Virus record (IMG/VR): IMGVR_UViG_3300005613_000018
Location: 1 to 64,000 of that record
Direction: 5' to 3' (one strand)
DNA from: a virus
Length of the DNA: 64,000 nt
The position numbers and the translations under genes are program-made. Below the pieces are notes generated by a model. That model worked only from the letters and a program-made list of their open reading frames with translations. It did no database searches and was not told where the DNA came from. How positions within the stretch are numbered: the first letter of the stretch is position 1; each line of letters opens with the position of its first letter. This document shows positions 5,960 through 7,153 of the stretch, piece by piece.

Positions 5960-5988
5960 TTGACTAAATAGATACAGTGGTCTATAAT
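5960..5988 (+). promoter_or_regulatory. sigma70-type promoter
   Basis: TTGACT-N17-TATAAT directly before riboswitch. Confidence 0.8.
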
Positions 5989-5996
5989 AGACCTGT

Positions 5997-6044
5997 CGTT
6001 CATTCTCTATTTCCGAATAGAGAACGCAAGTAAGTCGCGGAACG
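5997..6044 (+). ncRNA. Glutamine riboswitch-like aptamer 1 (glnA/Downstream-peptide class)
   Basis: P1 CGTTC/GAACG, P2 TTCTCTATT/AATAGAGAA, CGCAAGTAAG core; DUF4278-like gene downstream. Confidence 0.72.
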
Positions 6045-6061
6045 GAGCGTTAGCAATTAGA

Positions 6062-6634
6062 ATGATTTATTACACTTACTACTCTTACGAACCCTTTGGG
6101 AGAGGCTACATTGGTAGCAGAGGATGTGAGTGTAATCCAGTGGAGGATAATTATTTTGGTTCCTATGGAGACAAAACATTTAATCCTTCCTCTAAAATCA
6201 TTCTTACCGAACATGCTACGAGAGAGGAAGCAGTTGAAGCAGAAGTAAAACTCCATGAGTTTTATCAAGTTGATACTAATCCTCACTTTGCTAATAGGGC
6301 AAAGCAAACATCTTCTTCATTTTCTTTCTGTTCTCAGGGAGAACGAATTGGTAGAGGCAATCCCTGTTTTGGTAAAGTTCGTGTTACTGACGGTAAAAAT
6401 GAACGAGTAGTTTATGAGAATGACATTCCTTCTGGGTGGTGGAAAGGTAGAAGTCGTAATCCAAAAGAATACGCTACTACTAAATCCATAACATATACCA
6501 GAGGTAAAATGTATGATGACTTTCTAAAAGATGTAAGTAAAGATGAATCTATTTTATCTTTACCTATTAGAAAACTTGCAGAAATTTATCAAACATCTCA
6601 TACTTCTATTCGTCGCTGGAAAAAATCAATCTAA
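6062..6634 (+). mobile_element. Free-standing GIY-YIG (Seg-like) homing endonuclease gene
   Basis: N-terminal YYTY-x8-GYIG, EEAVEAE, FAN; C-terminal HTH-like segment. Confidence 0.75.
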
Positions 6635-6635
6635 T

Positions 6636-6841
6636 CGTTCATCCTATGTTTGAGTTAGCACTATTAGCAAATCTAAATCGTAATCCTGAGATGACTTGTT
6701 TACAAGTCAGAGAAATTGCAGAAACCGTAGTGGAATCTGAAATGAAGGATCGTGATAAAGAAATGTTTCTGACAAGATTATTTGGCAGATACATGACCTT
6801 AAAGTGCATCAAAGAATAGGACGCACACGACTGAAGGAACG
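6636..6841 (+). ncRNA. Glutamine riboswitch-like aptamer 2 with ORF in the P2 loop
   Basis: CGTTCA-TCCTAT...ATAGGA-CGCACACGACTGAAGGAACG. Confidence 0.6.
6646..6819 (+). CDS. 57-aa hypothetical protein nested in aptamer 2
   Basis: Uninterrupted MFELALLANLNRNPEMTCLQVREI...LKCIKE*. Confidence 0.6.
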   Translation: MFELALLANLNRNPEMTCLQVREIAETVVESEMKDRDKEMFLTRLFGRYMTLKCIKE

Positions 6842-6899
6842 GAAAACGGATCCAGCGAAAGCTGAGAAGGTTAACTTTCCATTCTTTTAGGAGTCAATC

Positions 6900-7067
6900 A
6901 TGAACACACTTAATCTCATTCGTAAGCAGATTCAAAAAGCATCTGCTCTTCATGACGCACAAATCTTCCACACTTCATATCGTGGTGTAGAATTTAAAGT
7001 TGACAATCATGATTCAAAAGAAACTCATGGTAAATTTACTTATCGTGGTCATACTTATGAAAAATGA
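6900..7067 (+). CDS. DUF4278-like small protein
   Basis: AGGAG RBS; SYRGVEF and TYRGHTY repeats; downstream of glutamine aptamers. Confidence 0.75.
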   Translation: MNTLNLIRKQIQKASALHDAQIFHTSYRGVEFKVDNHDSKETHGKFTYRGHTYEK

Positions 7068-7153
7068 AATTTAAATTAAGAGTATTGTTTTAGAGGGAAG
7101 AGTTGACACTCTTCCCTTTTTTGTTTAAAATAAGTCATGAATAATTTCTTCTT

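Follow-up and report, generated by a model that had tools for sequence, protein, structure and literature searches.

The window analysed here is 64,000 nucleotides (nt) of DNA, positions 1 to 64,000 of the IMG/VR virus record IMGVR_UViG_3300005613_000018, and represents a fragment of a T4-like cyanomyovirus whose nearest isolates are Synechococcus phages. Its region 5995–6893 is the leader of a gene for a DUF4278 (IF17-like) protein at 6900–7067, and this leader very probably contains one glutamine-I (glnA-type, RF01739) aptamer, judging from its sequence, with a P3 arm that opens into a three-way junction. One branch of the junction is a hairpin whose loop holds a complete protein gene. An earlier note on this DNA had seen that a complete open reading frame (ORF) fills the loop of a riboswitch hairpin, and this is borne out by the ratio of nonsynonymous to synonymous substitution rates (dN/dS) of the ORF, by its presence in 191 of 202 unique loci and by covariation in the enclosing helix. 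By sequence and predicted structure, the element belongs to the glutamine-I class in a new, ORF-interrupted form. Taken as a whole, the explanation that we favor, and consider reasonably probable, is a single aptamer with an ORF-bearing P3 arm that works as a glutamine ON switch, in which translation and folding compete.

A Probable Single Aptamer Spanning the Leader

Loci were gathered from three sources: a pattern scan with the 3′ half of the element (120 loci), a protein-profile scan with gp198, the DUF4278-like product, which is independent of the RNA (561 confirmed, 80 fetched), and two scans with variant strands. Four P1-type strands recur in these loci, denoted s1 (5997–6001), s2 (6040–6044), s3 (6636–6640) and s4 (6837–6841). 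The earlier note had paired CGTTC at 6636 with GAACG at 6837 (s3 with s4) as the P1 of a self-contained aptamer and placed the ORF in its P2. Neither assignment is supported by the homologues. Covariation pairs s3 with s2 and s4 with s1, the top pair of the proposed s3:s4 helix is mismatched in 53 of 129 aligned homologues, and the ORF hairpin is a branch of the P3 arm of a larger glnA-type aptamer. The junction in P3 would thus give rise to two branches, the s2:s3 hairpin (6040–6044/6636–6640) and the ORF hairpin (6642–6647/6816–6821).

The evidence for this nested pairing comes from several counts. Among 161 unique loci, the four strands read CGUUC/GAACG/CGUUC/GAACG in 100, CGUUC/CAACG/CGUUG/GAACG in 51 and CGUUU/CAACG/CGUUG/AAACG in 7, with no intermediates, and the changes compensate only in s1:s4 and s2:s3. 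In separate pattern scans, 78 of 79 occurrences of CAACG had CGUUG after them, and all 64 occurrences of CGUUG without an intervening endonuclease had CAACG before them. For the nested fold, pairing in the 129-sequence alignment amounts to 98.5%, and seven pairs have changed on both sides. The variable pair of s2:s3 is G-C in 76 sequences, C-G in 53 and broken in 0, while the top pair of s1:s4 is C-G in 118, U-A in 7 and U-G in 2, the helix as a whole being 98.3% paired. The P3 helix, AGUCG:CGACU, is 99.7% paired, with changes from A-U to G-U and from G-C to G-U and one compensatory G-C variant; in one locus, both P3 strands are entirely different yet complementary.

The natural short forms, which have a short hairpin in place of the ORF, can be recognized by the Rfam model directly. 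Two of them, L139 and L198, matched RF01739 with 45.9 and 45.0 bits, respectively, above the gathering threshold of 35 bits, each in one alignment that runs from the first CGUUC through P2, CGCAAGUA, an insert in P3 and CGACU to GAAGGAACG. P2 directly follows CGUUCA with U-A/C-G closing pairs, as in RF01739, and the P2 hairpins of the homologues are variable and compensated. The core of the aptamer is repeated in part, and in permuted order, at the inner junction (CGUUC-A-hairpin-CGCAAA).

We considered the possibility that the leader carries two glutamine aptamers in tandem, unit 1 at 5997–6044 and unit 2 at 6636–6841, the latter with its own P1 and with the ORF in its P2 loop. Tandem glnA RNAs have been reported (PMC2864571), and both units resemble the aptamer, scoring 24–29 bits for unit 1 and 32.6–34.1 bits for the short form of unit 2. 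However, neither unit reaches the Rfam threshold alone, while the spanning alignment does. The top pairs of the tandem fold are broken in 55 and 53 of the 129 sequences, whereas the nested pairs are perfectly compensated. Moreover, unit 1 has AGUA without GAAG and unit 2 has GAAG without AGUA. We take AGUA and GAA to be the consensus halves of loop E in glnA RNA; since each unit holds one half, neither can form the motif, and the two halves can face each other only in a spanning fold. Loop E itself is named as a feature of glnA RNA in the literature (PMC6698751). A tandem arrangement is therefore unlikely.

Several observations weigh against the spanning fold. Rfam found no glutamine riboswitch at the gathering threshold in the window and none at E ≤ 10 in 6500–7100, and a search of the whole 99.6-kb IMG/VR record with RF01739 returned only a sub-threshold match at 5995–6048 (24.5 bits). 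The lack of a spanning hit is explained by the ≈790 nt inserted in P3, which are too long for the model, and does not indicate that the element is absent. Because of an endonuclease insert, the strands of P1 in the window would need to meet across ≈840 nt, and those of the inner hairpin across ≈590 nt. The J2/3 segment deviates from the consensus at one position, with C where the consensus has G (CGCAAGUA vs. CGGAAGUA). Many sequences probably inherited the two compensatory switches from just two evolutionary events, which means that the counts given above overstate independence. All four P1-type strands of the window carry the consensus letters, so the s3:s4 pairing could form in this phage alone; the local CGUU at 6048–6051, left beside s2 by the endonuclease insert, could replace s3 as the partner of s2, freeing 6636–6640 for 6837–6841. 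Finally, RNAalifold consensus folding of the short forms prefers s1:s2 together with the helix that masks the downstream ribosome-binding site, showing that an alternative pairing is feasible; this fold may be the OFF state. The consensus strands, the local CGUU and the joining of s1 with s2 by RNAalifold also speak for the tandem arrangement.

A further possibility is that the element is no longer a ligand sensor, and that its helices serve protein binding, RNA stability or processing, or act as a structural translational operator. The off-consensus position in J2/3 and the degenerate copy of the aptamer core in the inner junction would fit, as would very high contig depth over 6022–6062 and 6801–6841 in one metatranscriptome, which could represent a stable processed RNA. 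However, the remaining RF01739 consensus nucleotides are invariant across hundreds of diverged loci, and both the canonical association with DUF4278 and a masking helix of the ON-switch type have been kept. Loss of sensing is thus very improbable, and the element is likely to sense glutamine.

Other parts of the aptamer also vary in size. Nine loci have a ≈50-nt insert in P2 with its own complementarity (GGUA-UCG..AUAGC..GCCAC; alignment A3, columns 40–100), demonstrating that a second peripheral stem of the riboswitch tolerates expansion.

The ORF-Bearing Hairpin

The letters on which the earlier note was based are correct: CGTTC at 6636–6640, A at 6641, TCCTATG at 6642–6648 with ATG at 6646–6648, and, further downstream, ATAGGA at 6816–6821 with TAG at 6817–6819 and GAACG at 6837–6841. 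They form a 6-bp helix, P3b (U6642-A6821, C6643-G6820, C6644-G6819, U6645-A6818, A6646-U6817 and U6647-A6816), at the end of which G6648 and A6815 are unpaired. The minimum free energy structure of 6630–6900 from ViennaRNA includes this helix (z = −2.76). A 6-bp complement by itself is weak evidence, and the strength of the case comes from the comparison of homologues. The fourth pair of P3b is C-G in 93 of the 129 sequences, U-A in 29, U-G in 2 and unpaired in 3. The first three pairs are U-A, C-G and C-G, the fifth is A-U in 96, and other pairs also change on both sides. This covariation was reached by none of 500 shuffles, and sliding the register destroys the pairing. Rarer forms of the helix include UCUAU/GUAGA and UCCUC/GAGGA. 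The ORF hairpin, as judged from these comparisons, is solid under the nested and tandem readings alike.

The start and stop codons are located on opposite strands of P3b, and their sole direct link is the A6646-U6817 pair. The earlier description of a start and a stop codon that pair with each other holds only for the subtype of the window, to which about a tenth of the loci belong, and there it comes down to one base pair between the codons. Elsewhere, in the majority of loci, translation stops (UGA or UAA) 15 nt further 3′, within the helix masking the DUF4278 ribosome-binding site. The stem and the ORF, whose conservation in homologues the earlier note had proposed to check, are both conserved there, the one by covariation and the other by its dN/dS (see below).

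Three loci (L192, L199 and L204) have a wholly different 9-bp ORF hairpin, GAUUAUGGU/ACCAUAAUC, with the AUG still inside. These loci also have a longer ORF and, in the junction, UCCGCAAA rather than GGACGCAAA, and may constitute a sub-architecture that has diverged.

The Nested Gene

The way in which its sequence varies identifies the ORF at 6646–6819 as a genuine protein-coding gene. Insert lengths are almost all 143 + 3n, i.e., they differ by multiples of 3. In ≈95% of the long forms, the ATG is at a fixed offset, 10 nt after the C of CGTTC. The reading frame ends in most loci at UGA or UAA within GAC-UGA-AGG (GACUGA/GACUAA), and in the subtype of the window at UAG within AUAGGAC (UAGGAC). 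From 113 loci, 105 different proteins were obtained that align as one family of 53–65 amino acids with a hydrophobic N-terminus and two Cys residues (C18 and C54) that are invariant or nearly so. The family comprises three subfamilies, and the protein diverges to <20% identity. Entropy at the three codon positions is 1.18, 0.78 and 1.43, the second being the most conserved, and the median dN/dS is 0.35, indicating purifying selection.

A protein profile search yielded 590 clusters at 90% identity, all unnamed. Relatives match phrog_504 and phrog_13397 (L010, E = 2.9e-23; L014, E = 1.1e-41), both of "unknown function". The window ORF had no PHROG match at E ≤ 0.01; its identity to these relatives is 5–36%, with only one sequence above 24%, and it shares both Cys residues, position and frame with them. 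The nested protein had no match in Pfam and, by Foldseek, none in the PDB at E ≤ 0.001, while the ESM Atlas gave only viral hypothetical clusters with scores <0.8. An AF2 model of the product is a small helical bundle with a predicted local distance difference test (pLDDT) score of 79.8.

Gene and aptamer share nucleotides. In most loci, the codons for the C-terminal W-D-A-(N/H)-D and the stop codon run through the 3′ strand of the hairpin, across the junction and the P3 3′ strand, and into the beginning of GAAG. The last residues and the stop are thus written in structural RNA, and core RNA nucleotides double as codons.

It could be argued that the ORF simply rides along in a peripheral loop that tolerates it, and that the riboswitch works normally with no interplay between translation and sensing. 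P3 is indeed the variable part of glnA RNA, appearing as an insert in the Rfam alignment; a mobile endonuclease gene fills the neighboring loop in several phages; natural short forms exist; and the ORF product is diverse. However, the register of the ATG in the stem is fixed in ≈95% of loci despite the divergence of the protein, the aptamer core and the anti-Shine–Dalgarno strand supply the nucleotides of the last five codons and the stop in most loci, and the stop covaries with the masking helix. The geometry is such that ribosomes at these positions must disturb the fold. We therefore doubt that the gene is a mere passenger.

The Masking Helix and the DUF4278 Gene

The identification of the downstream gene as DUF4278-like in the earlier note is well founded. 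In addition to the phrog_545 match of the window protein (Table 1), 16 of 20 gp198 relatives match DUF4278 (PF14105), with a best E of 2.5e-5; the match of the window gp198 to PF14105 (E = 8.6e-4) is below the cut-off. The IF17-like gp198 is likely an inhibitor of host glutamine synthetase.

Between the aptamer and this gene lies a predicted expression platform, in which CUGAAG, overlapping the P3 3′ strand, GAAG and most of the ORF stops, pairs with CUUCAG. The helix has nine pairs in the window, and the last two bases of CUUCAG are the start of the gp198 Shine–Dalgarno sequence, AGGAG. Among the sequences of alignment A3, the helix is 99.5% paired. At the position of the stop codon, the pair is G-C in 61, G-U in 46 and A-U in 22, and the loci with a UAA stop have the compensating U in 19 of 19 cases. 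In cyanobacteria, glutamine riboswitches 5′ of DUF4278/IF17 genes are ON switches (PMC6212724, PMC6698751), and the arrangement of the phage masking helix matches this logic by analogy.

About one third of the loci have an additional hairpin in the platform (Table 1). In the window, its context at 6848–6871 is GGAUC-CAGC-GAAA-GCUG-AGAAGG. The loop is usually a GNRA-type tetraloop, and the stem occurs as CAGC/GCUG, CACC/GGUG, CAUC/GAUG, CUCG/CGAG or CUGC/GCAG.

Proposed Mechanism

By comparison with the cyanobacterial glutamine riboswitches, glutamine would stabilize P1, loop E and P3. The stabilized aptamer would withdraw 6831–6839 from the masking helix, and translation of gp198 would be turned on. 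A ribosome initiating on the nested AUG would cover s3 and the 5′ strand of the hairpin, while a terminating ribosome would cover the 3′ strand of the hairpin, the junction, P3 and the anti-Shine–Dalgarno strand. With these footprints, an mRNA on which the nested gene is being translated could not at the same time adopt the ligand-competent fold, nor the reverse. The earlier note had suggested such a competition, and we infer the same from the geometry; whether it has a regulatory role is, in our estimation, an even call.

The effect could go both ways. A ribosome terminating at the nested stop would transiently melt the masking helix, which would open the ribosome-binding site of gp198 independently of glutamine, a form of translational coupling. 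Conversely, when the aptamer is bound to glutamine and tightly folded, ribosomes should find it harder to initiate on the nested gene. Tentatively, riboswitch and nested gene might then constitute an integrated device, in which the glutamine-bound fold buries the nested start while freeing the IF17-like gene for ribosome binding, and terminating ribosomes override the sensor. If so, the phage would set the ratio of two small proteins, both perhaps aimed at host nitrogen metabolism, from the glutamine level and the translation capacity; core aptamer nucleotides would serve as codons, and ORF-interrupted aptamers would be the common form of cyanomyovirus riboswitch, invisible to covariance-model censuses.

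Two points count against such coupling. Its direction is something that we infer, and the Shine–Dalgarno sequence of the nested gene is not conserved, being GGAG in one clade and replaced by UUC, AA, AAC or AUU linkers in the other. The GGAG at the end of unit 1, found in 99 long forms vs. 1 of 10 short forms, was considered as the Shine–Dalgarno sequence of the nested gene and rejected, since it belongs to one clade; we do not rely on it because the CAACG/CGUUG clade keeps the ORF with the other linkers.

The Homing-Endonuclease Insert

The other branch of the junction, the s2:s3 hairpin, contains a homing-endonuclease cassette in the window (Table 1). It is flanked on both sides by CGTT (6048–6051 and 6636–6639), and by CGTT or CGT across the carriers. 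Five other loci (L004, L005, L129, L132 and L134) share the insertion site, while the cassette is absent from a near-identical phage (L130). It is found in the GAACG/CGUUC clade and the CAACG/CGUUG clade alike. Other loci have inserts at the same point between s2 and s3 that start with AGCGTAAGCAAT or AGCGTTAGCAAT.

Locus Layout and Transcription

The features of the locus are listed in Table 1. From the position of the promoter, the transcript would be expected to start a few bases 5′ of the aptamer; a TATAAT is also found ≈8 nt 5′ of the first CGTTC in short-form homologues. Seven isolate phages (S-T4, Sf-FS3, Sf-CH5, RN05-S, S-CAM9, S-SM1 and syn9) have the same order, consisting of an aptamer-like unit 1, CGTTCATCC(C/T)ATG, an ORF of ≈55 codons, GGGACGCAAACGACTGAAGGAACGG, a Shine–Dalgarno sequence and gp198. 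The terminator-like hairpin after gp198 (7092–7119) contains the −35 box, TTGACA at 7103, of the next promoter-like site (TAAAAT, 7126–7131), so that the end of one unit overlaps the start of the next.

Table 1. Predicted features of the leader and adjoining genes, in window coordinates.
Feature	Position	Strand	Description	Basis
Promoter	5960–5988	+	Sigma-70-like (TTGACT, 17 nt, TATAAT)	11/12 matches
s1	5997–6001	+	CGUUC, outer P1 5′ strand, pairs with 6837–6841	s1:s4 covariation; RF01739 alignment of short forms
P2 hairpin	6003–6024	+	6003–6011 with 6016–6024, loop UCCG	Position and covariation in homologues
J2/3	6025–6032	+	CGCAAGUA (Rfam consensus CGGAAGUA); AGUA 6029–6032, loop-E half	Invariant in 129 homologues
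P3 5′ strand	6033–6037	+	AGUCG, pairs with 6828–6832	
s2	6040–6044	+	GAACG, inner hairpin 5′ strand, pairs with 6636–6640	
Homing-endonuclease cassette	6052–6635	+	ORF 6062–6634, 190 aa; in s2:s3 hairpin loop	phrog_314, E = 1.5e-8
s3	6636–6640	+	CGUUC, inner hairpin 3′ strand	
P3b 5′ strand	6642–6647	+	Includes AU of start codon	
Nested gene	6646–6819	+	57 codons (syn9 gp197/T4-GC 430 family)	Entropy, dN/dS, profile clusters
P3b 3′ strand	6816–6821	+	Includes UAG stop	
Junction strand	6822–6827	+	CGCACA (CGCAAA in most relatives); within ORF translation in most homologues	
P3 3′ strand	6828–6832	+	CGACU	
Anti-Shine–Dalgarno helix, 5′ strand	6831–6839	+	CUGAAGGAA; mutually exclusive with P3, loop E and P1	99.5% paired
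GAAG and s4	6833–6841	+	GAAG (loop-E half; GAA 6833–6835) and GAACG (outer P1 3′ strand)	Equals Rfam consensus GAAGGAACG; invariant in 129 homologues
Platform hairpin (optional)	6854–6865	+	CAGC-GAAA-GCUG	≈1/3 of loci; stem covaries
Anti-Shine–Dalgarno helix, 3′ strand	6882–6893	+	UUCUUUUAG (6882–6890), overlapping Shine–Dalgarno AGGAG 6889–6893	
Regulated gene	6900–7067	+	55-aa DUF4278-like protein (syn9 gp198; IF17-like)	phrog_545, E = 1.9e-31
Terminator-like hairpin	7092–7127	+	Intrinsic type, with T run; closes the unit	

Four metatranscriptome studies yielded contigs that contain parts of the region or its relatives. One contig of 1104 nt, from a relative, spans the promoter, unit 1, the endonuclease gene and a different version of the nested ORF, and reaches into gp198. 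As assembled contigs, these data indicate presence in an RNA library only, as distinct from transcript ends, strand or translation, and the coverage gaps over 6678–6800 carry no meaning. In one aquatic metatranscriptome (run X9), contig depth was ≈40,000 over 6022–6062 and ≈1300 over 6801–6841, compared to ≈30 over the endonuclease gene. Such depth at the riboswitch segments could come from leader RNA of many phages that is abundant or stable, or else arise from the assembly.

Distribution

The 202 unique loci mentioned above are cyanomyovirus loci in which unit 1 adjoins unit 2. In the 11 that lack the long ORF insert, a loop of 2–17 nt closes a short hairpin instead, and these loci are natural controls in which the ORF is replaced by a tetraloop. 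The element occurs in at least 201 cyanophage isolate records and >560 IMG/VR contigs, and ≈95% of these elements are of the gene-containing form that covariance models do not see. A survey of riboswitches counted no more than two glutamine riboswitches among cyanophage genomes and judged riboswitch use to be rare in phages (PMC5473149). Our results suggest that standard searches miss the common, ORF-interrupted form, and with ≈95% of the elements invisible to covariance models, the census of phage riboswitches may be badly biased.

When 185,579 species genomes were scanned for the s2-linker-s3 signature, seven matches emerged, and the two that were examined both proved to be cyanophage DNA inside bacterial assemblies or metagenome-assembled genomes (MAGs); the scan thus provided no evidence of a cellular copy among these genomes. 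One of the two, NZ_RMVE01000006.1 (188 kb, "Nonlabens xiamenensis"), is cyanomyovirus DNA, 98% identical to cyanophage P-TIM40 over 8 kb. The other, JBJBBP010000001.1 (194 kb, a "Synechococcus sp." MAG), is also cyanomyovirus DNA and matches 353 cyanophage records. Their filing as cellular sequence looks like contamination or mis-binning in public assemblies.

With a protein gene lying within the helices of a metabolite sensor and sharing nucleotides with them, the leader offers a system in which ribosome traffic and ligand sensing can be studied on one RNA, and nature already provides controls that lack the ORF. How far a peripheral arm of a riboswitch can expand is illustrated by the neighboring endonuclease and by the interlocking and partial duplication of the architecture. 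The element is probably part of phage control over host glutamine synthetase and nitrogen flow, which is relevant to marine nutrient cycling.

Comparison with Known Systems

Glutamine-I riboswitches (glnA RNA) upstream of gifB/DUF4278 genes in cyanobacteria were reportedly described by Ames and Breaker in 2011. The earlier note knew of no description of the present architecture, and literature searches on ORFs nested within glutamine riboswitches and on phage DUF4278 likewise returned nothing relevant, an absence that is not proof. The cyanobacterial glutamine-I riboswitches (RF01739; Klahn et al. 2018, PMC6212724) share with the phage element a P1 of CGUUC/GAACG, followed by A, P2, a CG-AAGUA junction, P3 and GAAGGAACG. 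In those that precede gifB/DUF4278 genes, the same gene family lies downstream and a helix that masks the Shine–Dalgarno sequence competes with the 3′ strand of the aptamer. In the phage, however, P3 is not a simple hairpin but an arm with a three-way junction made up of a partial copy of the core, one branch of which encloses a conserved gene that overlaps structural nucleotides, while the other can hold an endonuclease. Unlike their cyanobacterial counterparts, the long forms in phages are missed by covariance models.

Glutamine-II (the Downstream-peptide motif, RF01704) occurs in the marine picocyanobacteria that are the hosts of these phages. It resembles the phage element in the words CGUUCA...GGACGCA...GGAACGG and in having a GAACG strand inside a longer 3′ hairpin beside the start codon. 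Identity with glutamine-II was rejected: the scores against RF01704 were 20.4–28.6 bits, compared to a threshold of 33 bits. What distinguishes the phage element is its P3 together with the two loop-E halves, AGUA and GAA, features that define type I.

Riboswitches in tandem, glnA RNAs among them, have been described (Weinberg 2010, PMC2864571) and, like the phage leader, have two aptamer-like units head to tail in one leader. In the phage, however, the two units are interlocked by covariation, outer strands with outer and inner with inner.

The enterobacterial leaders mgtA/mgtL and corA/corL (PMC11552253) also contain an ORF in a metabolite- or ion-responsive leader, where its translation selects between exclusive structures. 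mgtL is a 17-codon regulatory peptide that acts through Rho termination (PMC11552253), whereas the phage ORF encodes a conserved protein of 53–65 amino acids under purifying selection and occupies a hairpin loop within the aptamer itself. A leader-peptide or upstream-ORF attenuator of the mgtL type, in which translation rather than the product matters, does not fit the conserved Cys pair, the dN/dS and the 590 clusters. The group I introns of T4-like phages that have homing-endonuclease ORFs (PMC3984707) provide another parallel, with a gene in a peripheral loop of a structured RNA and a need for compatibility between translation and RNA folding; the endonuclease of the window itself sits in such a loop. 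The phage element is a riboswitch, however, not a ribozyme, and its nested gene does not encode an endonuclease and is nearly universal rather than sporadic. What sets it apart from mgtL/corL and from the intron ORFs, in concept its closest precedents, is the enclosure of a conserved gene in a hairpin loop of the aptamer, with which it shares nucleotides.

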